DNA from: Aeropyrum pernix K1
Lineage (GTDB): Archaea; Thermoproteota; Thermoprotei_A; Sulfolobales; Acidilobaceae
Assembly (NCBI RefSeq): GCF_000011125.1
Contig: NC_000854.2
Coordinates: 1,290,001 to 1,322,000, forward strand
DNA length: 32,000 nt
Direction of reading: 5' to 3'
Shown: positions 6,155 through 31,205 of the stretch, piece by piece
Position numbering within the stretch: position 1 is the stretch's first letter
How the letters are laid out: every line of letters starts with the position of its first letter
Notes under the pieces: generated by a model
Databases searched by the model: none
What the model saw: the letters and a program-made list of their open reading frames with translations, nothing else
Told to the model about the DNA's origin: nothing
Made by a program: the position numbers and the translations under genes

Positions 6155-6180
6155 GCTAAACCCTCATATCTAGGTTTAGC
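6155..6180. promoter_or_regulatory. Inverted repeat GCTAAACC-N10-GGTTTAGC just upstream of the nrdJ start (candidate operator or 5' hairpin)
   Basis: Perfect 8-bp arms at 6155-6162 and 6173-6180. The spacer CTCATATCTA is a weak TATA-like element about 27 nt upstream of ATG 6197. Confidence 0.35.
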
Positions 6181-6184
6181 GGGG

Positions 6185-11839: not shown

Positions 11840-11946
11840 TATCCACCGTTCGACTGGGGCTTCAAGTCTAGGCCGTGGACTACCGGCTGCCCGGGGGTAA
11901 TCTTTATATTGTCAAGAGGTATTATCAAAACCCCTTAGAAGACTAT

Positions 11947-12906
11947 ATGGGGTGTTTACGTGCTTTGGCCTGCTCTAGAGCCAGGGCTAGGGCCTATTCT
12001 TCCGCGGCTAACCTAGGCCCCGGCTTCGATGCTCTAGCCGTCGCCCTGGACGCTTACTACGATGAGGTGGAGGTGAGGGTCTGCAGCGGAGGCAACAGTG
12101 TTTATGTGGATGAGGTGGAGGGCAAGTTCTCGTCGGGCGTTCTTCAAGGGCCCAACACCGCCGCAGAGGCGGTGCGAGGGCTTCTTAACATGGAGGGGGT
12201 GGAAGCTGAAGTCGGGATTAGGGTTTACAAGGGGGTCCCCCCAGGGAGGGGTTTGGGTAGCAGTGGCGCTTCGGCGGCTGCTGCAGTAGCAGCAGTATCA
12301 CATGCTCTAGCCCTGGAGGTGCCTGTGGATAGGCTGGTGTTCTATGCAGGCCTGGGCGAGAGGGCCGCGGCTGGGCAGCCCCACTTCGACAATGCCGCGG
12401 CAAGTATACTCGGTGGCCTGGCTGTAGTCGCCAGCGACGCCGCGGGCAAGCTGCGGGTGTTCAGGGTGCCTTTCAAGGCTTGGTTCGCCGTTGTGACGCC
12501 CATGAATCCGGTGCCCCAGGGCAAGACTGGCGTTATGCGTAAAGTACTCCCGGAGAACGTTAGCTTCAGAGACGCTGTGAGAAACTTCTCCAGAGCCGCT
12601 GGTATCGTAGCGGCAGCTGTCAACGGCGACCTCAAGTCCATGGGGGCTCTTATGATGTCCGACGAGATAGTCGAGCCTCGCAGGAGGAGTTACGTACCGT
12701 GCTATACCCAGGTGAGGAAAGCAGCCCTGCAAGCAGGGGCTCTAGGGTTCTCCCTCAGCGGTGCAGGACCTTCCATGATAGCCCTTGCTCCTAGCAGCGA
12801 GGCTGCCAGGGAGATAGCAGCTGCTATGGAGGAGTCATGCATATGCTGCGACAATCCGATGACCGTTGCGGCTGAGCCTGCTCCGGGAGCCTCGGTAGTG
12901 GGGTGA
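11947..12906 (+). CDS. thrB: Homoserine kinase (GHMP kinase family)
   Basis: SSAANLGPGFDALAVAL near the N-terminus and the GHMP motif PPGRGLGSSGASAAAAV. I prefer ATG 11947 to the track start GTG 11875, because TATA-like TTTATATT (11903-11910) and TATTATCAAAA lie just upstream. Confidence 0.85.
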   Translation: MGCLRALACSRARARAYSSAANLGPGFDALAVALDAYYDEVEVRVCSGGNSVYVDEVEGKFSSGVLQGPNTAAEAVRGLLNMEGVEAEVGIRVYKGVPPGRGLGSSGASAAAAVAAVSHALALEVPVDRLVFYAGLGERAAAGQPHFDNAAASILGGLAVVASDAAGKLRVFRVPFKAWFAVVTPMNPVPQGKTGVMRKVLPENVSFRDAVRNFSRAAGIVAAAVNGDLKSMGALMMSDEIVEPRRRSYVPCYTQVRKAALQAGALGFSLSGAGPSMIALAPSSEAAREIAAAMEESCICCDNPMTVAAEPAPGASVVG

Positions 12907-15009: not shown

Positions 15010-15828
15010 TCATATATTGTAGCCCGAGGCCTTGAGCTCCTCCTCAACCTCCCTCCTCTCCCAAGGGAACACGATCCACTTATCCAGGCTCTTGGAATAG
15101 TAGTCCGGGACTAGGTTTGTCCAGGGCTTTATATATAGTGTTGCAGTCTTTACCTGAGCTGGTAGGTAGAGGTCCACAGCCTCTATGGCATGCTGCAAAG
15201 TCAGCCCTGAGTCGCTTACATCATCCACTACCAAGACATTCCTGTCTTTAACCTCTATCACTAGAGGCTGTCTCAGGAAGGGTCTCGGCTTCCTAACGCC
15301 GACGGAGGTGTAGAGTTTAATCTCCATCACTCCTATATTCTTGACGCCTAGGGCATCGGCTAGGAGTAGTGCGGGGACGATACCGCCCCTTAGTATACCC
15401 ACAATGACGTCCGGTTCAAAACCGCTCCCAACGATCTTGTCTGCAACATCTCTCACGGCATCCTCTATATCCCTCCAGCTGAGGTGGATAAGCTCGACCC
15501 TCCTACCGCTAACCTCCTTAGAGCCCCCGTGGGTAACAGGCAGCACAACAACCTCTTCCACAACCTCGTGATCCTCGGGCAGGAGGCGGTAGTCTACACC
15601 GTCGACGAAAACTAGATAGCCCGGCTTTGGGCTTCCGTCGTTCTCAATAGCCTCCTTAAGCGCTTCAACGTGTTCAACAGCTTTTTTCAACACCTCCTTC
15701 CAGCTAAGCTCCCTACCCTCAATCTCGATAGAGTCTCTCCCCGCCCTCTCTCTAAGACCTCCGAGCAGCCTGACCCTAACCTTCCTAGTAGAGCCTGAAC
15801 CCCCGTTAGTCGAATAGCTGCTTTTCAT
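15010..15828 (-). CDS. Fusion protein: N-terminal MoaD/ThiS-like beta-grasp domain ending in Gly-Gly + C-terminal purine (xanthine/guanine-type) phosphoribosyltransferase
   Basis: Residues about 16-102, KVRVRLLGGLRERAG...SWKEVL...GYLVFVDGVDYRLL..DHEV.EEVVVLPVTHGG, follow the MoaD pattern (…N… D..L.dGDeV.hhPPvsGG). Residues about 108-272 carry GILRGGIVPALLLAD and the PRPP loop VLVVDDVSDSGLTL of type I PRTases (Gpt-like). Confidence 0.7.
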   Translation of the reverse strand: MKSSYSTNGGSGSTRKVRVRLLGGLRERAGRDSIEIEGRELSWKEVLKKAVEHVEALKEAIENDGSPKPGYLVFVDGVDYRLLPEDHEVVEEVVVLPVTHGGSKEVSGRRVELIHLSWRDIEDAVRDVADKIVGSGFEPDVIVGILRGGIVPALLLADALGVKNIGVMEIKLYTSVGVRKPRPFLRQPLVIEVKDRNVLVVDDVSDSGLTLQHAIEAVDLYLPAQVKTATLYIKPWTNLVPDYYSKSLDKWIVFPWERREVEEELKASGYNI

Positions 15829-16352: not shown

Positions 16353-18020
16353 ATGGTTGACCGGGTGATAGAGATGGCGATCCAGCAGCAACCTATGACG
16401 GAGCCTGTAGGAATCCCAGTTATTATACTTAAGGAGGGCACCCAGAGGTCTTACGGCCGCGAGGCTCTGAGAGCAAACATAATGGCCGTCAGGGCTATAG
16501 CTCAGATCCTGAAAACAACCTATGGTCCAAAAGGCATGGATAAAATGCTGGTTGACAGTCTAGGAGACATTACCATAACCAACAACGGTGCCACCATACT
16601 GGACAAGATGGACGTGGCGCATCCCGCCGCAAAAATGCTGGTCCAGATAAGCAAGGGCCAGGAGGATGAGGCTGGCGACGGTACCAAGACGACTGTCATA
16701 TTCGCGGGCGAGCTCCTGAAAGAGGCTGAGAAGCTTCTTGACATAAACATCCACCCCACGATAATTGTTGAGGGCTACAAGGAGGCCCTCAGGAAGGCGA
16801 GCGAGGTTATAGAGTCCATAGCGGAGCCGGTCTCCTATGACGATGTAGAGAAGCTAAAGCTAATAGCCAAGACGAGCCTCAACAGCAAGGCTGTAGCCGA
16901 GGCTAGGGACTACTTCGCCGAGCTAGCTGTCGAGGCTGTAAGGACTGTTGCGGAGAGGAGAGGTGACAGGTGGTACGTTGACCTGAACAATATTCAGATA
17001 GTGAAGAAGCATGGCGGCAGCCTGAGGGACACCAGGCTGGTCAGGGGTATAGTTCTCGACAAGGAGGTAGTCCACCCCGACATGCCTAGAAGGGTTGAGA
17101 ACGCCAGGATAGCGCTGCTAGACACTCCGCTGGAGATAGAGAAGCCTGAGATAGACCTGGAGATAAGCATAACCAGCCCTGAGCAGATAAAGGCCCTCTA
17201 CGAGAAGCAGGAGAGGATACTCCAGGAGAAGATCGAGAAGATTGCAGCCACTGGCGCTAACGTGGTGATAACCCAGAAGGGTATCGACGATGTGGCACAG
17301 CACTTCCTGGCGAAGAAGGGTATACTGGCGGTGAGGAGGGTCAAGAGGAGCGACATAGAGAAGATAGCTAGGGCGACGGGCGCCAGGATAGTGACTGACA
17401 TAGAAGATCTCAGGCCCGAGGACCTAGGCTATGCTGAGCTGGTTGAGGAGAGGAAGGTTGGAGAGGATAAGATGGTGTTCATAGAGGGCGCCAAGAACCC
17501 GAAGAGCGTGACCATACTGCTCAGGGGCGGCTTCGAGAGGCTTGTTGACGAGGCCGAGAGATCCCTCCACGACGCGCTCAGCGTGGTGGCCGACGCCATA
17601 ATGGACGGCAAGATAGTCGCTGGCGGCGGCGCTGTCGAGGCCGAGGTTGCTAAGGTGCTATACGAGTACGCATCCAAGCTGCCAGGCAAGACCCAGCTAG
17701 CCGTAGAGGCGTTTGCTAGGGCTGTAGAGGCTCTCCCGCAGGCCCTCGCCCACAACGCTGGCCACGACCCGATAGAGGTCCTAGTAAAGCTGAGGAGCGC
17801 CCATGAGAAGCCTGAGAACAAGTGGTACGGAGTCGATCTGGACACTGGTGAGATAGTGGACATGTGGAGCAGGGGAGTCCTAGAGCCTATGAGGGTTAAG
17901 CTCAACGCGCTGAAGGCCGCCACAGAGGTTGCCTCCCTGATACTGAGGATCGACGACGTCATAGCTGCTAGGAAGGAGGAAGAGGAGAAGGAGGAGAAGA
18001 GGGGCGGAGAGGAGGAGTAA
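16353..18020 (+). CDS. ths: Thermosome subunit (group II chaperonin)
   Basis: TTYGPKGMDKML, ITNDG-like ITNNGATIL, GDGTKTTV, VAGGGAVE, and a C-terminal EEEEKEEKRGGEEE tail. ATG 16374 (MAIQQQ...) is an alternative start to ATG 16353. TATA-like CTTATATAG lies near 16313. Confidence 0.95.
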   Translation: MVDRVIEMAIQQQPMTEPVGIPVIILKEGTQRSYGREALRANIMAVRAIAQILKTTYGPKGMDKMLVDSLGDITITNNGATILDKMDVAHPAAKMLVQISKGQEDEAGDGTKTTVIFAGELLKEAEKLLDINIHPTIIVEGYKEALRKASEVIESIAEPVSYDDVEKLKLIAKTSLNSKAVAEARDYFAELAVEAVRTVAERRGDRWYVDLNNIQIVKKHGGSLRDTRLVRGIVLDKEVVHPDMPRRVENARIALLDTPLEIEKPEIDLEISITSPEQIKALYEKQERILQEKIEKIAATGANVVITQKGIDDVAQHFLAKKGILAVRRVKRSDIEKIARATGARIVTDIEDLRPEDLGYAELVEERKVGEDKMVFIEGAKNPKSVTILLRGGFERLVDEAERSLHDALSVVADAIMDGKIVAGGGAVEAEVAKVLYEYASKLPGKTQLAVEAFARAVEALPQALAHNAGHDPIEVLVKLRSAHEKPENKWYGVDLDTGEIVDMWSRGVLEPMRVKLNALKAATEVASLILRIDDVIAARKEEEEKEEKRGGEEE

Positions 18021-18021
18021 A

Positions 18022-18044
18022 CCGTTAAACATTAACGGGTTTTT
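18022..18044 (+). terminator. Hairpin + T-run downstream of the thermosome gene
   Basis: CCGTTAA-aca-TTAACGG (7-bp stem), followed by gTTTTT. It starts 1 nt after the TAA stop. Confidence 0.4.
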
Positions 18045-18204
18045 AAACTATTAAGTACCTTTTCTACTTCTCCCTTCCCCTTAAACACATCCTTCCACCA
18101 CCCCCCATTATAGCAAGTCTCCTGCTTCCTCTCAACTCTCCTTATAACCGTGTCTAAGTCTAAATTAAATCCGAGTTTGGGAGTGTCCAGAGGAGGCAGG
18201 AGAG

Positions 18205-19299
18205 GTGGTCCGCGTGGATGTTGAGGAGAGGTTTAACAGAATTGCACGGAATACCGTGGAGATCGTCACCGAAGAGGAGTTGAAGGGGCTGTTGGCATCA
18301 GGAGCCAGGATTAAGGGCTACATAGGCTATGAGCCGAGCGGTGTCGCCCACATAGGCTGGCTTGTCTGGATGTACAAGGTTAAAGATCTTGTCGAGGCTG
18401 GCGTGGACTTCTCGGTTCTCGAGGCGACTTGGCACGCGTATATCAACGATAAGCTCGGGGGCGACATGGATCTCATTAGAGCTGCGGCAAGGATTGTTAG
18501 GAGGGTTATGGAGGCTGCTGGGGTTCCCGTTGAGAGGGTTAGATTCGTGGATGCTGAGGAGCTTGCCAGTGATAAGGATTACTGGGGTCTCGTCATAAGA
18601 GTTGCGAAGAGGGCTAGTCTGGCCAGGGTTAGGAGGGCTCTGACTATAATGGGTAGGAGGGCTGAGGAGGCCGAGGTTGATGCTTCGAAGCTCATCTACC
18701 CTCTCATGCAGGTTTCAGACATTTTCTACATGGACCTCGACATAGCCCTAGGGGGTATGGACCAGAGGAAGGCTCACATGCTTGCCAGGGATGTTGCCGA
18801 GAAGCTTGGCAGGAAGAAGCCTGTTGCGATACACACCCCAATAATCTCGAGCCTTCAGGGGCCGGGGAGGATGGAGGCCTCCCAGGGGGAGATAGACGAC
18901 GTGCTGGCTGAGGTCAAGATGAGCAAGTCTAAGCCGGAGACGGCTGTGTTCGTTGTTGACAGCGACGACGACATAAGGAGGAAGATAAGGAAGGCTTACT
19001 GCCCTGCAAAGCAGGTTCAGGGGAACCCGGTGCTCGAGATAGCGAGATATATACTATTTGCTAGGGACGGCTTCACCCTACGAGTCGACAGGCCAGCCAA
19101 GTATGGAGGGCCAGTGGAGTATACGAGCTATGAGGAGCTCGAGAGGGACTACACTGATGGCAGGCTGCACCCCCTAGACCTCAAGAACGCTGTGGCCGAA
19201 AGCCTGATTGAAGTAGTGAGGCCTATTAGAGGGGCGGTTCTCGGCGACCCCGCAATGAAGAGGGCGCTTGAAGCGATAGAAGGTAAGGTTACGAGATAG
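18205..19299 (+). CDS. tyrS: Tyrosyl-tRNA synthetase (archaeal type)
   Basis: Class I motifs: GYEPSGVAHIGW (HIGH-like) and KMSKSKP. YPLMQVSDI is the tyrosine-recognition block. 364 aa. GTG start. Confidence 0.9.
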   Translation: MVRVDVEERFNRIARNTVEIVTEEELKGLLASGARIKGYIGYEPSGVAHIGWLVWMYKVKDLVEAGVDFSVLEATWHAYINDKLGGDMDLIRAAARIVRRVMEAAGVPVERVRFVDAEELASDKDYWGLVIRVAKRASLARVRRALTIMGRRAEEAEVDASKLIYPLMQVSDIFYMDLDIALGGMDQRKAHMLARDVAEKLGRKKPVAIHTPIISSLQGPGRMEASQGEIDDVLAEVKMSKSKPETAVFVVDSDDDIRRKIRKAYCPAKQVQGNPVLEIARYILFARDGFTLRVDRPAKYGGPVEYTSYEELERDYTDGRLHPLDLKNAVAESLIEVVRPIRGAVLGDPAMKRALEAIEGKVTR

Positions 19300-19320
19300 C
19301 CCTGGAGGAGCCAGCCCTCT

Positions 19321-20715
19321 TTACACCCCGCATATGCAGGCCCCTAGGTCGCCTCCAAAACCCTTCTTCTTCAACTCAAGGAACTTCTCCACAAGCTCCC
19401 TATGCCCGGGCCTCTCCCTGAGTATCCTCTCTATTATACCGCCCCTCTTCATAACCTCTATCTCCCAGCTTCGAAGCGCAAAGCATAGGTAGCATCCTAT
19501 CCTGTAGAACCCTGCCTCGTAGAGCGGGTTCAGGGGTATGCCCTTCGATAGTATGTAGAGCTGTACATGGCCGCCGCTCCACAGCTTAAGGGGCGACACA
19601 ACAGGATATCCTAGCTTCTCATCGTATCTGAGGGGCGGTCTTTTGCCCCTTTTCTCAGACTCTCCATCCCTGTCTCCAGTCACTACTACGGTTTTGCCTC
19701 GGGAGACTGTTCGGAAGGCTTGCCGGAGGGCCTCCAGCTTCCTCCCGGTGCACCACCTGTACTCGGGGTCCGGCATGGGCATGCCCTCTATTAGCAGCCC
19801 CTCGTCGACGTCGGCCCTCGCATAAACTAGATCGACGCCTAGGGTGGAAGCCACCTTCTCAACATACTCGGCGTTCTCTATAAAGTCTATCCCGGTGTCG
19901 ACGTAGACTGCCTTGACAGCGTCCCTGCCGAAAGCCTCGACCGCCAGGAGAAGGGCTGCCGTAGAGTCTTTGCCGCCGCTCCACGGTACAATCACGGTGT
20001 CCACATCCTCACCCACCATCCTCAGGACCTCAGCGGAATGCTGCTCCAATACCCTCAGAATACTCCTGTTAGCCTCTACTAGGCTTTCTACATCGACGCG
20101 GACAGGCTTAACACGTCTGTAGAGCCTGCCCTGGGGGAGCGGCTTAGAATTGTCTATCACTAGCTCGCCCAGGGGCCTCGGCCCGCTGTACACCAGGTGC
20201 TTTCCACCATACATTTTGAACAGCAGCGCGGCGCCTCCTATACTCCTCTGCATGAACAAGCCTAGAACCTTAGAGCCCCTCCCGTAGACGAAGAAGCTGT
20301 CGCCCTGAGGGCTGTAGGGAAGATCCTCTACTTCAACGCTGCCAGGCCGGCGAGAGAGTATGAAGGTGGAGCCGCTCCAGTGCGTCCTAAGCCTGATCCT
20401 GGCTCTGGCGCTGTTGAGGGCTGAGTATATAGCTTCTACCCTAACGTTCCTAACCCTCGACCCCTTAACCACCGCTACCTCGGAGAAGGGGGGGAGCGCG
20501 TCTTGTAAACCCCCCATACTATTGGGGTCGAGGTCCTCCCTGCCCAGGAGGAATACAGTGAACGGCCTGGCCTCCCTCAGTATAGCCTCCTCTAGGGCAC
20601 CGCCCCTGGGGCCGCCGAGGCTCTCGACCTCTATACCCCATCCTCCCATGAACTTCTCGACGGCAGCCTTGGCAGCCTTAGCGTCCTTCCTACTCCTCGC
20701 CACTACCCTTAGCAT
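19321..20715 (-). CDS. PAPS-reductase-family PP-loop protein with an unknown ~230-aa N-terminal domain
   Basis: The C-terminal half has the PP-loop VPWSGGKDST, TGDRDGESEKR, SPLKLWSGGHV..YI, NPLYEAGFYRIGCYLCF. This is the CysH/DndC-like fold. The N-terminal half has no motif I recognise. An alternative start is Met23 (20649). Confidence 0.75.
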   Translation of the reverse strand: MLRVVARSRKDAKAAKAAVEKFMGGWGIEVESLGGPRGGALEEAILREARPFTVFLLGREDLDPNSMGGLQDALPPFSEVAVVKGSRVRNVRVEAIYSALNSARARIRLRTHWSGSTFILSRRPGSVEVEDLPYSPQGDSFFVYGRGSKVLGLFMQRSIGGAALLFKMYGGKHLVYSGPRPLGELVIDNSKPLPQGRLYRRVKPVRVDVESLVEANRSILRVLEQHSAEVLRMVGEDVDTVIVPWSGGKDSTAALLLAVEAFGRDAVKAVYVDTGIDFIENAEYVEKVASTLGVDLVYARADVDEGLLIEGMPMPDPEYRWCTGRKLEALRQAFRTVSRGKTVVVTGDRDGESEKRGKRPPLRYDEKLGYPVVSPLKLWSGGHVQLYILSKGIPLNPLYEAGFYRIGCYLCFALRSWEIEVMKRGGIIERILRERPGHRELVEKFLELKKKGFGGDLGACICGV

Positions 20716-20932
20716 GGAATTTCAGCCACCCGTAGATTAGTATTGACCCCGTGCTGATAAAAAGGGCCCCTACAATTATGGAGACTGCTATAAGAGTGTA
20801 CCTAACTATCGCTAGGAACTTTTCTACATTGGAGTCGAGTATTAGGTAGGGGTACGCAACCCCCAGGACTATGCCGACCGCGATAAATACAACCCCAGTT
20901 ACCAGGGGCCGGCTGCTCCCACCGCTCCTCAA
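20690..20932 (-). CDS. Small membrane protein (80 aa, two predicted TM helices)
   Basis: Two hydrophobic stretches (VTGVVFIAVGIVLGVAYPYLIL and LIAVSIIVGALFISTGSILIYGWL). It overlaps both flanking same-strand genes (4 nt upstream, 26 nt downstream). Confidence 0.45.
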   Translation of the reverse strand: MRSGGSSRPLVTGVVFIAVGIVLGVAYPYLILDSNVEKFLAIVRYTLIAVSIIVGALFISTGSILIYGWLKFHAKGSGEE

Positions 20933-21114
20933 GGCTTCAACACCCTATCAGCCTTTACCCTGTGAAACATGTCTCTAGCCTTATCCAGGGCCTCCTCCTC
21001 GGTGGAGGCGGCTACGTTGAACACTATACCACTCCCTTTCTCCCTAACCCTAAACCTCCTCTCCCCGAACAACACGTAAGACTCCAGGACCTCGAACTCC
21101 GGCAACTCCGGCAC
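20929..21114 (-). CDS. Hypothetical small protein (61 aa)
   Basis: ATG start with protein-like composition. There is a 4-nt overlap with the next gene. TATA-like CTATATAA (21146-21153) lies about 35 nt upstream on the minus strand. Confidence 0.4.
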   Translation of the reverse strand: MPELPEFEVLESYVLFGERRFRVREKGSGIVFNVAASTEEEALDKARDMFHRVKADRVLKP

Positions 21115-21161
21115 CTCACACCGGCTCCAGGCGGGCTCCCGAGGCCTATATAATCTTTGGG

Positions 21162-21890
21162 GTGATGGTTAATAATTTACCAGTGGAGACTGCTGTCGCA
21201 ACAGCCATACCACTAGCCCGGGGGTGCTTGGGCCTGGGCAGGACTTTGAAGAGGATACTCTGGCTTGACGGTAGGCCTTCAGCATTTAGGGTTGTTAAGC
21301 AGCATAGGGAGCTGCTAGCCCGCCAGGGCGTTGAGATAGAGGTTCCGAAGGGCGGGCCCCACCCGTCCTGGGCTGGTTGTGAGGTTGCCGTTCTACCGCC
21401 TCCGGATAGCCCTGAGAGGTCTTGGGCCGAGGGTTTTGTAGCCCCCCTGCGCTGCAGGCGGCTGGTCTCCAGCAAGGACCCCCTCAGGGCTCTCTACACC
21501 GCCCTTGCCTACCCGAGCCCCGGGTTCCTTCATGTCACTGTGGGTATAGATCCTGGTAGGATGTGTACGGCTGTTGCCCTTGCCGACGGCTTGGTGCTTT
21601 GGGAGTGGAAGGGGGGCTGTGGGGAGCTGGGCCCTGCTGTGAGGGGTGTTCTCTCCAGGATACCCCATGAGGGTAGTGCTGTATACCTGGGCTCGGGCCC
21701 AAGCTTCGAGGAGGCTGAGGAAAGCCTGGCGGCGGCTGGCCTCGGCTATAGTATAGTGGAGGAGTGGGGCTCCACGAGGTCGCCTTACGAGCCCCCTGGA
21801 GGCTTGTCCGGGCTCTTCTCTGATAAGGATATACTCGCTTCAATCACAATAGCTTACAGAGGTTTATCGAGATGGAGGATGCGAGTCTAA
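21162..21890 (+). CDS. Hypothetical protein with C-terminal RNase H-like/ASKHA-type fold motif (VGIDPG...)
   Basis: HVTVGIDPGRMCTAVALADGLVLWEW resembles the first strand and catalytic Asp of RuvC/YqgF-type nucleases, and also of actin-fold ATPases. The N-terminal ~115 aa are unassigned. The start is uncertain: GTG 21183 fits the TATA at 21146-21153 better. The 3' end overlaps the UbiD-family gene by 19 nt. Confidence 0.4.
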   Translation: MMVNNLPVETAVATAIPLARGCLGLGRTLKRILWLDGRPSAFRVVKQHRELLARQGVEIEVPKGGPHPSWAGCEVAVLPPPDSPERSWAEGFVAPLRCRRLVSSKDPLRALYTALAYPSPGFLHVTVGIDPGRMCTAVALADGLVLWEWKGGCGELGPAVRGVLSRIPHEGSAVYLGSGPSFEEAEESLAAAGLGYSIVEEWGSTRSPYEPPGGLSGLFSDKDILASITIAYRGLSRWRMRV

Positions 21891-23185
21891 AGAGCTTCCT
21901 AGAGAAGGTTGGGTACAGGGTTGTGGATAGAACGCTCTCGAGGGAATACGAGGTAGCTAGGCTGATAGCCGAGACCCAGGGGTGCGGTCCGCCCCTTCTG
22001 GCCAGGATTGAGGGTGTCAGACAGCCTGTCGCCGTTAACGTGGTGGACACCCGCGAAAAGCTCTACAAAGCCCTAGGTGTCACCGGGGATTCTGAGGCTT
22101 ACGCCAAGATAGTAGACTCGACGATGAGGCCCGGGAGGCTGGAGTACGTGGATAAGCCGCCCTTGGATGAGATGCCTGAGGGTTTCGAGGGACTTCCCGC
22201 GGCGAGGTTCTACGAGGGAGAGGCGGGCCTCTACCTCTCTTCAGGGATCGTCATCGCCTGCTATGAGGGGGTGTGTAACGCCAGCATACACAGGCTCCTT
22301 ATACTCGGCAGGGAGAGGGCAGCAATACGTATAGTCCCCCGCCACCTGTGGCACCTCTACAGGAAGGCTAGGGAGAGGGGCGAGGACCTCCCCGCCACTG
22401 TCGTAGTAGGCCTACACCCCGCCGTGCTGCTAGCCGCCGCTACTAGCCCGCCCCTGGGGGTCTTCGAGCTAGGCCTGGCGGCTGGCATGCTGGGGGGCTC
22501 CATGAAGGTCTATAGGAGCCCGGTCCACGGCAACCCCGTCCCCCTGGGTGCAGCTATGGTTGCCGATGTATGGATAACGGGAGAGCAGGTGGAGGAGGGG
22601 CCCTACGTTGACGCTCTACTCACCTACGACAGGGTTAGGAGGCAGCCTGTAGTCAGGCTCGAGGCAGCCTACATCAAGGAGGGTGAGTACACCCACACTA
22701 TAATGGGGGGGAGCCTGGAGCACGTTAATCTAATGGGCTTCCCTAGGGAGGCCAGCATATGGGAGGCTGTGAGGAGGGCTCTACCGAGAGTCAGAGCCGT
22801 CAGGCTGACGCCCGCCAGCGGTGGATGGCTGCACGCTGTGATAGCTGTAGAGAAGCAGCACGAGGGCGACGGGAAGACGGCTATAATGGCCGCGTTTGCC
22901 GCCCACCCTAGCCTCAAGCACGTGGTTGTTGTCGACAGTGACGTCGATGTTGATGACCCCATGCAGGTCGAGTGGGCCATAGCAACCCGCTTCCAGGCCG
23001 ACAAGGACCTAGTTATAATACCGAGGGCAAGAGGTTCGACCCTCGACCCGAGCGCTGCAGACGGCCTGACAGCTAAGATGGGTTTAGACGCTACTAAGCC
23101 CCTTGACGCGGGCATGGGGTACGAGAGGGGCAGGATACCGGGGTTTAAATGGGGCTCCAGGAGGTGCCACCAGCCGGGAGACTAA
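21872..23185 (+). CDS. UbiD-family (prFMN-dependent) decarboxylase; candidate trans-anhydromevalonate-5-phosphate decarboxylase
   Basis: UbiD blocks: NASIHRL, IRIVPRH, VVVGLHP, EEGPY..., and the C-terminal HVVVVDSDVDVDDPMQVEWAIATRFQADKDL...STLDPSA. 437 aa. Confidence 0.85.
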   Translation: MEDASLKSFLEKVGYRVVDRTLSREYEVARLIAETQGCGPPLLARIEGVRQPVAVNVVDTREKLYKALGVTGDSEAYAKIVDSTMRPGRLEYVDKPPLDEMPEGFEGLPAARFYEGEAGLYLSSGIVIACYEGVCNASIHRLLILGRERAAIRIVPRHLWHLYRKARERGEDLPATVVVGLHPAVLLAAATSPPLGVFELGLAAGMLGGSMKVYRSPVHGNPVPLGAAMVADVWITGEQVEEGPYVDALLTYDRVRRQPVVRLEAAYIKEGEYTHTIMGGSLEHVNLMGFPREASIWEAVRRALPRVRAVRLTPASGGWLHAVIAVEKQHEGDGKTAIMAAFAAHPSLKHVVVVDSDVDVDDPMQVEWAIATRFQADKDLVIIPRARGSTLDPSAADGLTAKMGLDATKPLDAGMGYERGRIPGFKWGSRRCHQPGD

Positions 23186-23205
23186 GACCCTGGAGGGGCT
23201 TTGGG

Positions 23206-23676
23206 ATGGCTAGGCTGTACCCCGGCCAGCCTGTTGTCGGCGTGGGGTGCCTGGTGTTCAGGGGTGGGAGGATTCTCCTGGTCAAGCGGAAGTACCCGCC
23301 GGGCAGGGGGAAGTGGAGCATACCCGGGGGGCATGTGAGGCTGGGGGAGACTCTGGAGGAGGTTGCTGCTAGGGAGCTTGAGGAGGAGACTGGCATCAAG
23401 GGGCGTCCTCTGGGGGTGGTTAACGTTGACGACGCGATAACTGTGGACGACAAGGGGGTTAGGTATCACTATGTTTTAATTACTGTCCTTCTCGAGGACC
23501 TGGGGGGCGAGCCACGAGGTGGCGATGACGCGGAAGAAGCTGGATTCTACACGCTGGACGAGGCCCTCAAACTCAACCTCACCCCATCCACCCTAGGGCT
23601 TATAGACAAGATAACCAGGGGCATGCTCTGCCTCGAAAAGCCCATCAAGCCTAGAAGGTACAGGCCTGCCGACTGA
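23206..23676 (+). CDS. Nudix hydrolase
   Basis: Nudix box GGHVRLGETLEEVAARELEEETGI. ATG 23206 (MARLYPGQPVVGVGCLVF) is preferred over the track start 23149, which overlaps the upstream gene. Confidence 0.85.
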   Translation: MARLYPGQPVVGVGCLVFRGGRILLVKRKYPPGRGKWSIPGGHVRLGETLEEVAARELEEETGIKGRPLGVVNVDDAITVDDKGVRYHYVLITVLLEDLGGEPRGGDDAEEAGFYTLDEALKLNLTPSTLGLIDKITRGMLCLEKPIKPRRYRPAD

Positions 23677-23720
23677 ATACCGGGCAACAGTATTAACCCT
23701 ACAAGACGGTAAAACCCTAG

Positions 23721-24869
23721 ATGAGGCTATGTTTTGGGGTGTGCTGCGTCGTGTACAGGTTTGTCAGTAAGACGGGTGAGGCAGCCCGACTTATAGTAGA
23801 CTACTGCATATCCGCCTCTAGGGGGGACGATGTCGCAGTATCCTTCGGCCTCCCTGCGATAGACTTTGCCAGGGCAGTGGCCCTTGAGGTCCTCTCGCGC
23901 GGGGCCTACCCCCTCCTGAACCTGAGGGACGAGTACGTCGCGGAGGCCATGTACAGGCTGGCCCCCGAAGAGCTGCTAGACTATATATCGCCTATAGACA
24001 TGTACATGCTTGAGAAAGTGGACGCCAGTATAAGCATAATAAGCCCCCTCCACACCAAGCCCCTAGCCACAGCAGACCCCGGGAAGGTGGCTAGGCGTAG
24101 CAGGGCGTCGAGGCCCCTGACGGAGCTGTTCATGAAGAGGGATGGTGAGGGCAGCCTGAGGTGGACGGTCACAGCATACCCTGCACCCAGCCTTGCGCAG
24201 GAGGCTGGTATGGGGCTGCTCGAGTTCGAGGATTTCGTTGTTAGAGCGTTGAAGCTGCATGAGGACGATCCTGTCGCTGCCTGGAAGAGGCAGGCCGAGT
24301 GGCAGGAGAAGGTGGCCGCCCTGCTCAGCAAGGCCTCCGAGCTGAGAGTGGTGTCCAGCGGCACAGACATAACGTTCAGGGTTGAAGGGAGGATATGGAT
24401 AAATGATGACGGCAAGAAGAACATGCCGGGAGGCGAGGTCTTCACAGCACCGCACGAGGACGGTGTGGAGGGAGTAGTGACGTTCGACTTCCCAGCAGTG
24501 TGGAGGGGCTTAGAGGTGGAGGGGGTGAGGCTGGAGTTCCGGGGCGGGCAGGTAGTGAAGGCCTCCGCCTCCAAGGGAGAGGAGCATCTAAGGAGAATAC
24601 TCGAGACGGACGAGGGCGCTAAGAGGCTGGGAGAACTGGCCTTCGGCCTGAACTACGATATACAGAGGCATATAAAGAACATACTCTTCGACGAGAAGAT
24701 AGGCGGCACAATGCACATGGCCCTAGGGGCGGCTTATCCCAGCACAGGAGGCAGGAACCAGTCGGCTATACACTGGGACATGGTCAAGGACCTGAGGAGA
24801 GAGTCCAGGGTCTACGCCGACGGCGACCTCATCTTCGAGAACGGCAGGTTCATAGAGGACTACCTATAA
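23721..24869 (+). CDS. Aminopeptidase, peptidase family M29 (AmpS/PepS-like)
   Basis: M29-type blocks: PGGEVFTAP, NILFDEKIGGTMHMALG, IHWDMV. The N-terminus EAARLIVDYC...GDDVAV is typical. Confidence 0.85.
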   Translation: MRLCFGVCCVVYRFVSKTGEAARLIVDYCISASRGDDVAVSFGLPAIDFARAVALEVLSRGAYPLLNLRDEYVAEAMYRLAPEELLDYISPIDMYMLEKVDASISIISPLHTKPLATADPGKVARRSRASRPLTELFMKRDGEGSLRWTVTAYPAPSLAQEAGMGLLEFEDFVVRALKLHEDDPVAAWKRQAEWQEKVAALLSKASELRVVSSGTDITFRVEGRIWINDDGKKNMPGGEVFTAPHEDGVEGVVTFDFPAVWRGLEVEGVRLEFRGGQVVKASASKGEEHLRRILETDEGAKRLGELAFGLNYDIQRHIKNILFDEKIGGTMHMALGAAYPSTGGRNQSAIHWDMVKDLRRESRVYADGDLIFENGRFIEDYL

Positions 24870-24942
24870 ATCTGCACGGGGCTCGGACGTAGGGCTGGCG
24901 TCACACCCCCCACCGGAGGAGGGTCGGGCGAAAACTCCCTCC

Positions 24943-26037
24943 TCACGGCCCTTCACTTTTAGCTTTCTCTCTTACTGCCGAAATGTCTAGCGCCGCCTCG
25001 GCTATGTCGAGGGAGTAGCCCGTTATCCTCCTCATACTATCTATTACCAGGTAGCGTAGGAGGCTCCCACCCCCCCTCAGGAACTCCTGGGCCGTCATGC
25101 TCTCCAGCCTGCTCCTGTACTCGCTCAGCACCGGTGCGATGCTGGCAGCCAGGCCTGCGTCAGCCTTTATGAGGGCTTCAACACTCTTTGAGAAGCCTTC
25201 CGCAGCCTCCATCACCAGGCTTGAAAGGCCGTTCTCAACGCTCATGCCTGCTCCTAGGCTAGCCGAGACTCTCACCGAGAGTATTGTCGCGTGATCCGCC
25301 ACCCTCTCTATGCTCTTGACGGCCAGGAAGAGGTGCACTATCTCGGCGGGGGAGTAGACGCCGAGGTCCTTGAGGGGTAGCCTGCCGCTCGAGGCCATAG
25401 TCATCTGCCTAGCCATGTAGAGGTATAGCTTGTCTACAAGCTGGTCCCTCTCGGCAACCAGGTCCAGCAAACCTCTATCCCCGTTTTCCAGCCCCCTGGC
25501 GACGTCTCTGATCATTTCCGCCGCTATCCTAGCCATCCTAGATAGGGCGCGTGAGAACTCCATGCTCCTGTGGTCGACCACAGAAACGAACACTATGTAC
25601 CCCGGACCCTCCTCGAGAACGTTGAAACCGAGTATGTTCGACTCGACTATACTCCTGATCTTAGACACAGCGTCTACACTGCCGTCGCCGAAGAGGAGGA
25701 GCACCTCGTCATAGCCGGCTAAGTATGAGGCTATAACGCTTTTGATAACGAATGACAAGTCGAGCTCCTTACCCCTCAGATCTATAACGCGCCTATCCCT
25801 CCTCGCAGGCCTCTCCGAAGCAGACGGGGCGATTTTGAGGCTGCCGTCAGGCATAACCTCCAGCGTAACCTCGCTCCCCCTGCCCAGCCTCCATGTTTCC
25901 ACCCACTCCTTAGGCAGGCTCACGATATACGTGGAGCGCCCGGTGAGCTGGATCCTCCTCTTGTAGGCAGCCCTACCGTCCAAAACACCCACCACAGTCA
26001 ATATTCTATATACTAGCCGGGAGAAACTATATAGCAC
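24943..26037 (-). CDS. AbrB/SpoVT-domain + PhoU-domain regulator (archaeal PhoU-like phosphate uptake regulator)
   Basis: The N-terminal [31 protein letters not shown] is an AbrB-type swapped-hairpin motif. The C-terminal helical repeats include the PhoU-like ERVADHA. Confidence 0.8.
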
Positions 26038-26109
26038 ACCCTTACCCGGAGGACCTCCGTCCCATATTTAAAGCTTCCGTCAATGCCTAGTAGCTTTGGG
26101 TGTAGCAGG

Positions 26110-26529
26110 ATGAGTGTCAACTATGCAACGCTGGGGGACCTCAAGAAGGGCAGTTATATAGTGATAGACGGTGAGCCCTGCAGGATAGTTGAGATGAGCA
26201 GGGCCAAGACAGGTAAGCACGGCAGCGCCAAGGCTCATGTGGTTGCCATATGCGTGTTCTCCGGCCAGAAAAAGAGTCTGGTGGCGCCGGTCGACACTAG
26301 GGTTCAGATTCCAGTTATAGAGAAGAGGCTTGGCCAGGTGCTGGCGGATATGGGGGACATGGTCCAGATAATGGACCTGGAGACCTACGATACCTTCGAG
26401 GTCGAGAAGCCTGGGGGGAACGAGGAGGAGGAGCAGCTGGCAGCCAAGCTGCAGCCAGGGGTCACCGTGGAGTACTGGCTGATAATGGGCAAGCCCAAGA
26501 TAATCAGGATAAGGAGCTCCTCCAGCTAG
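26110..26529 (+). CDS. eif5a: Translation initiation factor 5A (aIF5A)
   Basis: [34 protein letters not shown] contains the hypusine-site motif [11 protein letters not shown] 26110 is preferred over the upstream track start 26083. TATA ATATTTAAA is at 26064-26072. Confidence 0.95.
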
Positions 26530-27499
26530 CCCCGAGACCCAGCTCCTGCGCCCTCCTCCTAAACCACTCTCTAACAACAGGCCCCATAGGCCTCCCAAGA
26601 GCCCTTCTGGTTACCCTGCAGAAGCTGCACTCCCCGCCGGAGGACAGGAGGCCGCAGCTCGGGCACCTGCCTATAGAGCCCTTCGGCTTCGGGTAATCCT
26701 CAACCCTCTTTGCAAGCTTGGACACCATCTGTAGCTTTAGCCCCGGCCTCTTATCCTCGAGCTGGTTGACCGTCTCCTTCAGCTCCACCTCCATCTGCCT
26801 CCTCTCGACGAAGGGGCACTCCTCGTGCAGGAAGGGGAGGCCGGCCAGGAGGGAGTAGAGGAAGCTCTCCTTCTCGTAAACGTAGTAGAGAGGCCTCACC
26901 CTCCCCACGGCCACGCCCGGTATGCTCTCCGTCTTGACGCCGAGCTTCGATATAGCCTCTAGGTCCTGGTTGAGGAAGGACTTTAGGTTGTACACGGCTA
27001 TGTCGTCTGCGTTGTGGCCGAGGGCGACGGCATCGACGCCCAGCTCAACGGCGGCAGCGTTTATGACGTAGCGTTTAACCATGCCGCACACGCTGCACGG
27101 CGGCCTCTTAGAAGCCTTGGCAAGCTCCGGTATGCCAGCCCCCAGGACCTCATTCAAGTCAAACACTATGAGGGGCACGTCCAGCTGGCTGGCAAGCCTG
27201 ATAGAGGCTTCCCTGCTCTTCTCGGAGTACTCGTAGATGCCCAGGTGTATGTAGAGCGCGACTACGTGGAACCCGATCCTCCTTGAAAGCCTCGAGAGGA
27301 CTGCCAGCAGCGTGGAGCTGTCTTTGCCACCCGAGACTGCCGCGAGGACCCTATCCCCCTTACCAACAAGCCTGTGCCTCATTATTGCCCTCTCTACCTT
27401 GGACTCCACGAACTCGAGATAGTGGTCTCTGCATAAATACCGCCTCTGGTACCTGATATACGCCACCGCGGGGGCGCCGCAGACGCTGCACCTAGCCAC
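26504..27499 (-). CDS. ttuA: TtuA/NcsA-type tRNA 2-thiolation PP-loop ATPase
   Basis: N-terminal zinc finger CSVCG...CRDH, PP-loop [10 protein letters not shown], Fe-S ligand contexts [12 protein letters not shown] and HEECPF, and a C-terminal zinc finger CPSCG...CSFC. The GTG start overlaps the last codons of the upstream Ubl gene by 8 nt. Confidence 0.85.
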
Positions 27500-27740
27500 C
27501 GGAGAGCACCCTAACTACATCCACCGTCTCTCCAGGCGAGACGAGGTCCTCTGGCAGTAGCGGCTTCCCGTCTCTAAGCACCACAGCCACCTCCTCGTTC
27601 ATACCCAGCATCCGAAGCAGCTCGCCCGCCTTCAGCGGCCTCTCGGCCTGTATAACCCTCTCCCCACCCTCCGGCACAAGCCTAACCTTTATAGCCTGGC
27701 CGCCAGTCACACTCAAACCGTCTACACCCATTATAAACAT
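27492..27740 (-). CDS. ThiS/MoaD-like ubiquitin-fold sulfur-carrier protein with C-terminal Gly-Gly (TtuB/SAMP-like)
   Basis: 82 aa ending ...[14 protein letters not shown]-stop. It shows the ThiS pattern (…L.dGD.Vehh..h.GG). It lies directly upstream of, and overlaps, the TtuA-like gene. Confidence 0.75.
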   Translation of the reverse strand: MFIMGVDGLSVTGGQAIKVRLVPEGGERVIQAERPLKAGELLRMLGMNEEVAVVLRDGKPLLPEDLVSPGETVDVVRVLSGG

Positions 27741-27756
27741 GGTTTAGCTCTAAACC
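27741..27756. promoter_or_regulatory. Palindrome GGTTTAG-ct-CTAAACC abutting the start codon of the Ubl-ttuA operon
   Basis: Perfect 7-bp arms at 27741-27747 and 27750-27756. It shares the GGTTTAGC/CTAAACC arms with the nrdJ upstream repeat (6155-6180). Confidence 0.35.
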
Positions 27757-27772
27757 AAAGTATTAACCCCGC

Positions 27773-27780
27773 CTATATAA
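27773..27780. promoter_or_regulatory. Shared TATA box (CTATATAA) in the 51-bp divergent region between the Ubl-ttuA operon and the AcnX genes
   Basis: Its centre is about 30 nt from the in-frame TTG 27807 (+) and about 37 nt from ATG 27740 (-). The core TATATA is palindromic. Confidence 0.4.
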
Positions 27781-27791
27781 GTTAGGAGTAT

Positions 27792-29015
27792 GTGGGCTGG
27801 TGTGTATTGTACCTGACGAGGGAGGAGGAGAGGATTCTGGCCGGCGAGGAGGGCGAGGCTAGGGCGAAGGCGCTGGAGGTTATAGTGAAGGTCGGCGAGG
27901 CTGTCGGGGCCGAGAGGCTAATACCAATTAAACACGCCCACGTCTCCGGGGCAAGCTACATGACTATAGGGGATGCTGGCCTCCGCTTCCTAGCCAGACT
28001 GGCTGAGAGCGGGGCTAGGTTCAGCGTGCCAACCACAGTGAACCCCGTTAGCTACGACGTTGAAGAGCCCGGCGCTATCCCCATGACTCGTCTGAGCCCC
28101 AGGATCGTGAAGGCCCAGAGCGAGATACTAAAGGCTCTAGAAGCTATGGGCGCGGACTTGATACTGACGTGCACGCCCTACTACACCGAGGTCCCCCGGA
28201 GAGTAGGACTCAGAGAGGGGGATAGCGTGGCCTGGGGCGAGTCCAGCGCAGTGGCCTATGCAAACAGTGTTCTGGGCATACACACTAACCGCGAGGGGGG
28301 TCCCCTGGCACTGATGGCGGGCATAGCAGGGAGGACCTACTTCTACGGAGCCCACGATCCCGAGTGGAGGAAGCCTAGGGTGGCCTACAGGCTTGAAACG
28401 CCGAAGGTGCTTGACGAGACCGAGGCCGGGGTGCTCGGGGAGGTTATAGCGACGCAGCACAGGGACGAGCATCCCCCCCTCCTAGACGCCCCCCTGGGGG
28501 GTGAGGCGGCGCTCAAAGAGTTCTCCGCCGCCGTAGGCTCGGCTGGCAGCCTGGCGATGGTTCACATAACCGGGGTGACCCCCGGGGACCCTGGTGACAT
28601 GATTGAGGAGGTTGTGACTATGGACTACGGCGACCTGGCAAGGAGGATGGAGGACCTGGCTCCAGGCTTCGAACCCGACATCCTCTACGTTGGCTGCCCC
28701 CACGCCAGCATAGAGGAGCTTAGGAGGCTCTACAGGGCCCTCTCGAAGGCTGGGGAGAGGGCGGGGCGTAGGACCGTGGTCTCGATCTCGAGGAGCCTCT
28801 ACCTGCAAGCCCTCAGAGAGGGCCTGGTTGAGAAGCTAAAGGGGCTGGGTGTAAGGTTCGTGAGGGACTCCTGCCTCATAGTCAGCCCCTTCAGCAGCGG
28901 CGCCCGAGGGGTGAGGGTGGCTACCAACAGCTACAAGGCCTACTTCTACCTGTCGAAGAAGGGTGTAGAGGTGGGTCTGGCGCCTATAGAGGCTCTGCCA
29001 AAGCTGGTGTCGTAG
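27792..29015 (+). CDS. Aconitase X catalytic (large) subunit, DUF521 type; candidate phosphomevalonate dehydratase large subunit
   Basis: The N-terminus YLTREEERILAGEEGEARAKAL and IPIKHAHVSGASY are typical of AcnX/DUF521. Conserved Cys contexts are LTCTPYY, VGCPHAS, RDSCLIVSP. The track start is GTG 27792. The in-frame TTG 27807 ((M)YLTREEE...) fits the TATA box better. Confidence 0.85.
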   Translation: MGWCVLYLTREEERILAGEEGEARAKALEVIVKVGEAVGAERLIPIKHAHVSGASYMTIGDAGLRFLARLAESGARFSVPTTVNPVSYDVEEPGAIPMTRLSPRIVKAQSEILKALEAMGADLILTCTPYYTEVPRRVGLREGDSVAWGESSAVAYANSVLGIHTNREGGPLALMAGIAGRTYFYGAHDPEWRKPRVAYRLETPKVLDETEAGVLGEVIATQHRDEHPPLLDAPLGGEAALKEFSAAVGSAGSLAMVHITGVTPGDPGDMIEEVVTMDYGDLARRMEDLAPGFEPDILYVGCPHASIEELRRLYRALSKAGERAGRRTVVSISRSLYLQALREGLVEKLKGLGVRFVRDSCLIVSPFSSGARGVRVATNSYKAYFYLSKKGVEVGLAPIEALPKLVS

Positions 29016-29044
29016 AGCCGGCGCGGGAACTATGGTGGTGAGCG

Positions 29045-29443
29045 GTGGAGGTCCTCAGGTACAGGTCCAGGCCTATTGTTGGGGGGGAGGCGGAGGGGCC
29101 GGCGGTTGTTATAGATAGCCTCAGCTTCTACGGCGAGGTAGACCCGGAGACCGGGGTGACGAGCGGTGGAAAGCCGCTTGCAGGCAGGGTGGCGGCCATC
29201 AGGAGGAGCAGGGGTAGCACGGTGGGAAGCTACGTGATCTACGCCCTAAAGGAGAACGGCGTGGCACCGCTGGCCATACTCATGGAGAGGGCGGAGCCGA
29301 TAGTTATAGCCGGCTGCGTCCTAGCCGGTATACCTCTCTACGACGGCCTGCCGCCAGAGTTCTTCGAGAGGGTTAGGGACGGCTACAGGGTTAGGGTGCA
29401 TAGCGACGGGCTCGTCGAGGTCCTAGGCCCTGGCCAGCCCTAG
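29045..29443 (+). CDS. Aconitase X swivel (small) subunit, DUF126 type; candidate phosphomevalonate dehydratase small subunit
   Basis: 132 aa. IVGGEAEGPAVVIDSLSFYGEVDPETGV and GSTVGSYVIY are typical of the AcnX small subunit. It starts 29 nt downstream of the large subunit. GTG start. Confidence 0.8.
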   Translation: MEVLRYRSRPIVGGEAEGPAVVIDSLSFYGEVDPETGVTSGGKPLAGRVAAIRRSRGSTVGSYVIYALKENGVAPLAILMERAEPIVIAGCVLAGIPLYDGLPPEFFERVRDGYRVRVHSDGLVEVLGPGQP

Positions 29444-30049
29444 GGCCTCGAAAACCCTCTCCGCTATCTCACCCTGCACATCCTCTATACCTCTCTCAAC
29501 CCCTCCCCTGACGCCCTCAACCCGTATAACCTTCACGCCCCTGGCTCTGGCAAGCCTCAGGACCTCCTCGTACATGCTTTTAACGCGTTCTAGAAACTCG
29601 GGTGTCTCGAAAACCTCCCTCCTCTCTCTGGCCGTTATCCTCCTCAGGGCCACCTCGGTCGGGACATCTATGTAGACGAGGATCTCCGCCTCCGGCGCCT
29701 TCCTGTTAACCGCGTCAACCCACTCCAACCCCGAGCCGACGCCCTGGTAGGCTAGGCTGCTGTACTTGTAACGGTCGACGACGAGGACCTCGGGGCTGCC
29801 GCCGCACCTCTCCACCACGCCTAGCCGGAGCCCCCACAGCCTGTCTGCAGCGAATAGCAGGGCCATCAAGTCGCTGTCCACACCCTCTGTACTCCTCAGG
29901 AACCCTCTTATCAGCCGGCCCACAGGCCCCTCCGTGGGCTCCTTCCAGAGGCAGGACTTGACTCCCGCGCCCGCAAGCCTGGCGTGGAGCAGCCTGGAGT
30001 GTGTGGAGACTCCGGAGCCGTCTATGCCCTCAAGGGCTACTATCCTCAT
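29423..30049 (-). CDS. tmk: Thymidylate kinase-like protein with non-canonical P-loop
   Basis: MRIVALEGIDGSGVST (TMK P-loop context), DRYKYSSLAYQG (DRY/AYQ block), and an Arg-rich lid RRITARERRE. The P-loop Lys position is Val. Confidence 0.75.
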   Translation of the reverse strand: MRIVALEGIDGSGVSTHSRLLHARLAGAGVKSCLWKEPTEGPVGRLIRGFLRSTEGVDSDLMALLFAADRLWGLRLGVVERCGGSPEVLVVDRYKYSSLAYQGVGSGLEWVDAVNRKAPEAEILVYIDVPTEVALRRITARERREVFETPEFLERVKSMYEEVLRLARARGVKVIRVEGVRGGVERGIEDVQGEIAERVFEALGLARA

Positions 30050-30080
30050 AACACCCCCGCCCCCGGCTACTCCTAGGCTG

Positions 30081-31043
30081 CTAGAAGATTGGGAGGTCCT
30101 CGGGGTTTCTATAGGCTATTGCGTAGGCCCCCATTACACCCTCGTTATCCCCGAAGCTCGCATCCACAACCTCTATCCTGGACGAGAAGGGGGCGTAGGC
30201 CGCTAGATGCCTCTCTATAAGCGGCCTGAGCATCCGCCTGTTGTTCAGGTAGACTGAGCCTCCTATTATGACTGCGTCGACGTCGTAGGCAGCCTTAACC
30301 GAGGCTATACCAGCGGCCGACGCCCTGGCTATATAGTCTATAACGTGGAGCGCGAAATCGTCGCCCACGGCGGCCGCCTCAAACACCTCCCTAGCGCTCC
30401 CCACCCTCCCCTCTAACGCCGCCCTGTACAGACTAGTCTCGGGACCCCTCCAGCCTCTGGCTAGAACCGAGGAGGTCCTCGGTATCCACCTCCCCCCCGC
30501 TATCGCCTCCCAATGACCCGTGCCGCCGCACCCGCACCTCCCGCCCTCCCAGCCCATGTCGACGACTATGTGGCCCACCTCGTGGGCGTTCCCCCGGGAG
30601 CCCAGTAGGAGCCTGCCGCCGACTACGAAGCCTCCTCCCACGCCGGTGCTCATGGTTATGTACCCCAGGTCGGGTGTGCCTGCCAATCTGCCCAGCAGAT
30701 ACTCGCCCCACGCCGCCGCTACTGCGTCGTTAGCAATGGCAACCTTTGACTTGGGGAACAGCCGCTTGAGTATAGTGCTTAGACGGACTATATGCGACTT
30801 GATATTCGGGCTGCCCACTATGTAGCCCCTCCGAAGGTCCAGGGGGCCTATTGAAGCGGCCCCCACTTTCTCGACCCGCCCCCTATCGATGCCTAGCCCC
30901 TCGGCAAGGCCCTGGAGAACACGCTCTAAACCTTCCTCGGTACCGGGGTTACGCTCTCTCTTGATAGCCTCTATAACCCCTCCCCTAACTATGGCCATCC
31001 TAACCCACGTGGCACCCACGTCTACAGCAACAACCTCCGCCAC
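30081..31043 (-). CDS. glk: ROK-family sugar kinase (glucokinase/hexokinase)
   Basis: N-terminal ATP motif VVAVDVGATWVR, and the ROK/zinc block GHIVVD...CGCGGTGHWEAIAGG. The track ORF runs to 31211, but its first 56 codons lack ROK similarity. GTG 31043 gives a 320-aa, ROK-sized protein. Confidence 0.85.
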   Translation of the reverse strand: MAEVVAVDVGATWVRMAIVRGGVIEAIKRERNPGTEEGLERVLQGLAEGLGIDRGRVEKVGAASIGPLDLRRGYIVGSPNIKSHIVRLSTILKRLFPKSKVAIANDAVAAAWGEYLLGRLAGTPDLGYITMSTGVGGGFVVGGRLLLGSRGNAHEVGHIVVDMGWEGGRCGCGGTGHWEAIAGGRWIPRTSSVLARGWRGPETSLYRAALEGRVGSAREVFEAAAVGDDFALHVIDYIARASAAGIASVKAAYDVDAVIIGGSVYLNNRRMLRPLIERHLAAYAPFSSRIEVVDASFGDNEGVMGAYAIAYRNPEDLPIF

Positions 31044-31205
31044 GCCGCAACACCACCAATGTTTGTTTTGCCCGGAGATCTTTCGGGAGTAAAGCCTCTC
31101 CGCTAGGCCCCCCGGGACTCGCCGCAGCCAGCCATAGTATGTGGGGGGTCGGGTTTGTATAGGGAGGCGTTGTCTAGGGCGGTTGACCGTGTTAAATGGG
31201 CTCCT

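Follow-up and report, generated by a model that had tools for sequence, protein, structure and literature searches.

The open reading frame (ORF) at 21872-23185 of a 32,000-nucleotide stretch of the Aeropyrum pernix K1 chromosome (contig NC_000854.2, positions 1,290,001 to 1,322,000, in the following called the window) almost certainly encodes the anhydromevalonate phosphate decarboxylase (AMPD) of this archaeon, a UbiD-family enzyme of the archaeal mevalonate pathway. An exact-sequence look-up of the 437 amino acid (aa) product returned Q9YA60 / BAA81089.1 / WP_010866780.1 of A. pernix K1 with 100% identity, and the UniProt/Swiss-Prot name given to Q9YA60 is "Anhydromevalonate phosphate decarboxylase". 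The ORF directly 5' of the gene is annotated as APE_2077.1, a hypothetical protein of Aeropyrum pernix K1, and the UbiD gene is therefore APE_2078. Further downstream, the cloning primers published for Ape_2089 (PMC10040528) fall on both ends of the ORF for the small subunit of an AcnX-type dehydratase, the forward primer at 29047-29068(+) with 0 mismatches and the reverse primer at 29422-29443(-) with 1 mismatch, which is an engineered TAG-to-TAA change of the stop codon. At the DNA level, positions 17500-32000 of the window are 100% identical over 14,501 nucleotides (nt) to an assembly made from an A. pernix sequencing run, and about 82% identical to Aeropyrum camini. Taken together, the upstream annotation, the primer sites and the DNA identity link the window to the locus tags used in the literature. 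The gene is thus that of the already known, type AMPD enzyme APE_2078, and there is no new biology here; the useful outcome is that the original prediction, a model's reading of the letters, had inferred the correct function from sequence alone.

Decarboxylation of trans-anhydromevalonate 5-phosphate (tAHMP) in the archaeal mevalonate pathway was reportedly first found with APE_2078, by Hayakawa et al. in 2018. In the passages of PMC8421414 and PMC8184944 that concern A. pernix, APE_2078 / APE_RS06980 is named tAHMP decarboxylase with reference to Hayakawa 2018, and the corresponding passage of PMC7976604, citing the same work, counts Aeropyrum pernix (APE_2078) among the characterised UbiD enzymes. 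The UbiX partner in A. pernix is given as APE_RS05555 (PMC8184944). The archaeal mevalonate pathway and the subunits Ape_2087.1 and Ape_2089 of its phosphomevalonate dehydratase (PMDh) have been described (PMC10040528), AMPD requires a prenylated form of flavin mononucleotide (prFMN), the product of a prFMN synthase, as its cofactor (PMC12547664), and AcnX together with AMPD forms the mevalonate route that predominates among Archaea (PMC11052028). The isoprenoid role that had been proposed for the ORF, as a decarboxylase of tAHMP, is borne out by the identity with Q9YA60 and by the naming of APE_2078 / APE_RS06980 in these passages. Two enzymes define the archaeal mevalonate pathway, an ATP-saving route to membrane-lipid precursors in most archaea, and AMPD is one of them. 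In this scheme mevalonate 5-phosphate would be dehydrated to tAHMP by the AcnX-type phosphomevalonate dehydratase encoded 4.6 kilobases (kb) downstream, AMPD would strip the carboxyl group from tAHMP, an alpha,beta-unsaturated acid, to leave isopentenyl phosphate, and a kinase encoded elsewhere would convert the latter to isopentenyl diphosphate. The prFMN for the second step would be supplied by the UbiX-type synthase from the distant locus APE_RS05555 that the literature reports.

Regarding family membership, APE_2078 is a full-length UbiD-family protein with the three-domain architecture; clear UbiD blocks had already been noted in the 437-aa product of this ATG-initiated ORF. The Pfam domains UbiD_N (PF20695, residues 15-82, E 4e-07), UbiD (Rift-related; PF01977, residues 106-280, E 2e-38) and UbiD_C (PF20696, residues 286-407, E 8e-40) each exceed their gathering score, and the NCBIfam model TIGR00148 'UbiD family decarboxylase' is matched with 287.8 bits, above its cutoff of 244.85. 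The scores on the NCBIfam models for particular members of the family all fall far short of the cutoffs, among them the phenylphosphate carboxylase models (beta 74.7 bits vs cutoff 468.95, alpha 24.1 bits vs cutoff 564.6). The second-best NCBIfam match is the VdcC model NF041204, and the nearest solved structure to APE_2078 is that of PtHmfF, a furandicarboxylate decarboxylase (6H6V/6H6X, an entry identified as PtHmfF in PMC8988006; E 4e-77, 40% identity, 416 aligned columns). Both matches would suit a (hetero)aromatic acid decarboxylase of the HmfF/VdcC/AroY type with a role in catabolism or detoxification. The VdcC score of 179.8 bits is, however, far under the cutoff of 650, Pfam and NCBIfam scans detected no VdcB, VdcD or hmf genes in the window and tblastn no UbiX/VdcB-like gene, and AMPD orthologues in many archaeal lineages adjoin AcnX and UbiX rather than genes of aromatic catabolism. 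As the identical protein is moreover named tAHMP decarboxylase, and cited as such in the passages above, we give an aromatic acid decarboxylase next to no probability and regard this explanation as effectively refuted. A decarboxylase of quinone biosynthesis, be it UbiD proper or the SCO4490 type of the menaquinone futalosine route, shares the UbiD family with APE_2078 and has weak matches in TIGR03701 (menaquinone SCO4490 type, 95.1 bits) and NF008175 (UbiD proper, 4-hydroxy-3-polyprenylbenzoate decarboxylase, 86.1 bits), but is most improbable, given that these scores lie far under the cutoffs of 495.9 and 788, that the window holds no quinone-pathway genes, and that gene context and the literature on APE_2078 favour the mevalonate pathway.

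The catalytic motif of UbiD enzymes has been defined as R-Xn-E-X4-(E/D) (PMC5818171). Alignment to PtHmfF and Fdc1 places it in APE_2078 at R141 ... E242-G-P-Y-V-D247. We compared this region in an alignment of the AMPD clade comprising 88 sequences, namely the AMPD of the window and 87 orthologues from the collected loci. N136, H140, R141, E199, E242 and G243 were invariant, the position of H158 was occupied by His in 87 of the 88 sequences, and position 247 by Asp in 83 and by Glu in the remaining 5, so that the clade carries the signature EGP[FY]VD...YD.VR.QP. N136, H158 and E199 align with identical residues in PtHmfF; they are candidates for coordinating the metal ions that bridge the prFMN phosphate, in analogy with N168/H191/E233 of Fdc1. 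We also considered D247 as an unusual feature of AMPD and rejected this idea: Asp at the position of Fdc1 Glu282 occurs naturally in some UbiD-family members, canonical UbiD among them, it is tolerated in Fdc1, and the motif itself is written with E/D (PMC5818171). Catalysis may proceed as in Fdc1, the UbiD enzyme for acids of the acrylic type, with the double bond of the substrate adding to prFMN in a 1,3-dipolar cycloaddition; we favour this mechanism because tAHMP is itself such an acid. R141 would then bind the carboxylate and D247 would serve as the proton donor. Several points weigh against the identification as AMPD. The activity of APE_2078 on tAHMP goes back to the Swiss-Prot name and to the quoted passages of papers citing Hayakawa 2018, no AMPD structure was found among the PDB matches of APE_2078, the putative residue roles are assigned by alignment only, and the cycloaddition mechanism is transferred by analogy from Fdc1.

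The features discussed here are collected in Table 1. The members of the sequence cluster to which the large AcnX subunit belongs carry the name 'Phosphomevalonate dehydratase large subunit' (Q9YA51), and translation of this gene probably starts at 27807, as annotated (402 aa, vs 407 aa for the mechanically called ORF). The distance between the AMPD stop codon and the AcnX pair is 4607 nt and is filled by six genes on both strands, encoding a Nudix hydrolase, an M29 peptidase, a PhoU-like protein with PhoU/MazE domains, eIF5A, TtuA and SAMP2. AMPD and AcnX therefore do not form one operon in A. pernix, and the spacing of about 4.6 kb with unrelated genes in between agrees with what the original prediction had described.

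Table 1. Positions in the window of AMPD, its immediate neighbours and the AcnX pair.
Feature	Coordinates	Strand	Remarks
APE_2077.1, conserved hypothetical	21246..21890	+	~214-220 aa; start 21246 or 21228; longest ORF from 21162
AMPD, APE_2078 / APE_RS06980 / Q9YA60	21872..23185	+	ATG start, 437 aa, UbiD domains, exact-sequence match
Nudix hydrolase	23206..23676	+	156 aa; PF00293 E 3e-24; start 21 nt past AMPD stop
Phosphomevalonate dehydratase large subunit, AcnX type IIb, APE_2087.1	27792..29015	+	PF04412 405.8 bits
Phosphomevalonate dehydratase small subunit, AcnX swivel domain, APE_2089	29045..29443	+	PF01989 88 bits

Equally in line with the prediction, scanning the large ORFs against Pfam and NCBIfam revealed neither UbiX nor isopentenyl phosphate kinase (IPK) nor mevalonate kinase (MVK) in the window. 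We further searched all six frames of the window by tblastn with UbiX, IPK-like, IDI2-like and polyprenyl (geranylgeranyl diphosphate) synthase queries, and the best match had an E value of 0.05. The UbiX query was validated against the PDB, where it matched 15 distinct UbiX/Pad1 sequences (E 1.5e-60 to 9e-30); the other three queries were taken from the Stetteria locus described below. The gap is explained for UbiX, because in this genome the partner gene is located outside the window, at APE_RS05555 (PMC8184944). The sole GHMP kinase of the window, located at 11875..12906 (+), was examined as a candidate mevalonate kinase and rejected, since the mevalonate kinase models reach 33-34 bits only and the homoserine kinase model NF002288 is passed with 244.9 bits (cutoff 194). 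Its cluster members bear the name homoserine kinase (Q9YA72), and the next gene encodes a Cys/Met pyridoxal phosphate enzyme.

A scan with one genome per species gave 80 loci with AMPD orthologues 39-61% identical to APE_2078, covering Thermoproteota, Bathyarchaeia, Thermococci, Methanomethylicia, Nezha-, Baldr-, Hod- and Odinarchaeia, among others. By tblastn of the window proteins, AcnX-L was found at most 200 nt from the AMPD orthologue in at least 35 of the 80 loci, a lower bound as many contigs end close to AMPD. In four loci (L050, L068, L079 and L088) the genes stand in the row UbiX, AMPD, AcnX-L, AcnX-S, and 5-47 nt separate UbiX from the downstream AMPD; in the first two of these the row lies around position 10000 of the locus. 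No aromatic-catabolism context was seen around the AMPD orthologues in the scanned loci. Such a context had been named alongside the prediction as the sign of a different function; what the orthologues adjoin is AcnX and sometimes UbiX. Closer to A. pernix, Aeropyrum camini shows full synteny of the AMPD region, and in two metagenomic relatives (L006 and L007, AMPD 63-65% identity) an APE_2077.1-like ORF, AMPD, AcnX-L and AcnX-S are contiguous or overlapping. In Stetteria AcnX is adjacent to AMPD in divergent orientation, and genes for an AA_kinase (IPK-like), an FMN_dh protein (IDI2-like) and a polyprenyl synthase lie 5-7 kb off. In Acidilobus AMPD is followed by the gene for tyrosyl-tRNA synthetase (TyrRS), and AcnX was not found within 10 kb. 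The layout in Aeropyrum reads as a dispersed form of a common UbiX, AMPD, AcnX-L, AcnX-S operon, which several other archaeal lineages have retained.

Some of these loci deserve mention in their own right. The compact rows of UbiX, AMPD, AcnX-L and AcnX-S belong to Baldrarchaeota, Hodarchaeota, Odinarchaeia and one metagenome-assembled genome (MAG) of Bathyarchaeia. A contig labelled 'Candidatus Acidoferrum sp.', which we take to be a bacterial genus, encodes at 6016-7320 an AMPD-clade protein with 41% identity and the EGPFVD motif (L066); mis-binning or horizontal transfer are possible. AMPD orthologues are also present in three MAGs labelled 'Sulfolobales archaeon' (L030, L032 and L035), in the latter two with AcnX adjacent. 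Sulfolobales use the eukaryote-type pathway (PMC10040528), and the label in these three MAGs probably covers former Desulfurococcales lineages.

AMPD is tightly flanked on both sides. The last 19 nt of APE_2077.1 overlap the start of AMPD on the same strand, and the Nudix gene follows closely downstream. A functional coupling of both neighbours to AMPD, concretely a conversion of dimethylallyl diphosphate (DMAPP) to dimethylallyl monophosphate (DMAP) by the Nudix hydrolase that would feed UbiX and thereby the supply of prFMN, appears improbable to us. It draws on the E. coli hydrolases NudJ, NudB, NudF and NudI, which make DMAP, the UbiX substrate, from DMAPP (PMC12359138), and E. coli NudJ is among the solved relatives of the Nudix protein, together with AtNUDX1 and the rose geranyl-diphosphate phosphohydrolase (E 3e-12 to 2e-10). 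Speaking against this, the closest relatives of known structure are MutT-like proteins of a generic kind (best E 2e-16), and the adjacency to AMPD is limited to Aeropyrum and one further locus, L008. The order AMPD, Nudix, M29 is kept in A. camini and in L008 (AMPD 68% identical), where the Nudix gene overlaps the AMPD stop by 8 nt, and the accompanying M29 peptidase gene suggests plain synteny. A general linkage between Nudix and AMPD genes was rejected, as beyond Aeropyrum and L008 only one further locus has a Nudix-like gene within 10 kb. The mechanically called Nudix ORF spans 23149-23676 (+) and would give 175 aa instead of the annotated 156 aa; the shorter start is probably the true one.

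For APE_2077.1 no Pfam or NCBIfam family was found, and when the Pfam threshold was relaxed to E 10, the sole match was a sub-threshold one to DUF1464 in one orthologue. Only 15 clusters of a large protein database matched it. The ORF in the same position in Acidilobus is 38% identical (E 2e-29), and 16 of 88 loci, belonging to Aeropyrum, Acidilobaceae, Caldisphaera and some Desulfurococcales, have a homologue in the vicinity of AMPD. Modelling with AlphaFold on 13 sequences gave a confident structure, with a predicted local distance difference test (pLDDT) score of 90.7 and a predicted template modelling (pTM) score of 0.86. The Foldseek matches of this model were marginal, the best having an E value of 3e-4 and a TM score of 0.42. 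They all concern RNase H-like folds, namely ribosomal protein S11, the RuvC-type resolvase MOC1, and in Tex and Spt6 the YqgF-like domains. An invariant G-x-D-P-G motif agrees with an RNase H-like fold, and the fold predicted for the protein is YqgF/RuvC-like (RNase H-like). The linkage of APE_2077.1 to AMPD may reflect inherited synteny and not functional coupling, because other genes are conserved nearby as well, that for TyrRS in 13 loci and a PAPS-reductase-like gene in 12 loci.

A few further genes of the window drew our attention. Between AMPD and AcnX, the gene for a TtuA-type tRNA 2-thiolation enzyme (26504-27499, minus strand) overlaps a small gene for a SAMP2-like ubiquitin-fold protein (about 27492-27716, minus strand), and the two form a sulfur-carrier pair. 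A 272-aa protein encoded at 15010-15828 (-) is an unusual fusion, in which a phosphoribosyltransferase domain (residues 118-257) is preceded at the N-terminus by a Urm1/MoaD-like ubiquitin-fold region (residues 18-102), the latter matched by NF053661 with 37.6 bits, below the cutoff of 70. The ThrB ORF (11875-12906) comprises 343 aa when called mechanically vs 313 aa as annotated, and here too the shorter start is probably true. In the ribonucleotide reductase (6185-9136, plus strand, 983 aa) the barrel domain extends across residues 148-903, compared with a profile of 523 positions, and ThyX (9234-10217, plus strand) has about 55 additional residues inside its domain. No intein/Hint match at E ≤ 1e-3 was found in either protein.

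Finally, we compared APE_2078 with known systems. The ferulic acid decarboxylase Fdc1 of Aspergillus niger (4ZA4) shares the R-Xn-E-X4-(E/D) motif with AMPD but is distant from it, with residues 98-245 only being aligned (E 1e-11) and the AMPD Asp replacing Glu282 of Fdc1. PtHmfF, the 2,5-furandicarboxylate decarboxylase of Pelotomaculum thermopropionicum, belongs to the same length class of about 440 aa and has the N-x4-R, PRHLWH and EGP motifs in common with AMPD, yet it acts on a heteroaromatic diacid, carries EGPFGE in its catalytic loop in place of the AMPD-clade signature, and stands in a different genomic context. The AMPD of Methanosarcina mazei, MM_1526, which has been used with PMDh MM_1525/MM_1524 and the prFMN synthase MM_1871 (PMC12547664), catalyses the same step with the same dependence on prFMN. 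Compared by locus tags, AMPD and PMDh of M. mazei are consecutive, like the AMPD, AcnX-L, AcnX-S rows described above, whereas in Aeropyrum six genes (4.6 kb) lie between them. The characterised AMPD of A. pernix K1 (APE_2078) is the same gene as the one in the window, with an identical protein and the same neighbours, APE_2077.1 upstream and APE_2087.1/APE_2089 downstream, and no differences were seen between the two.

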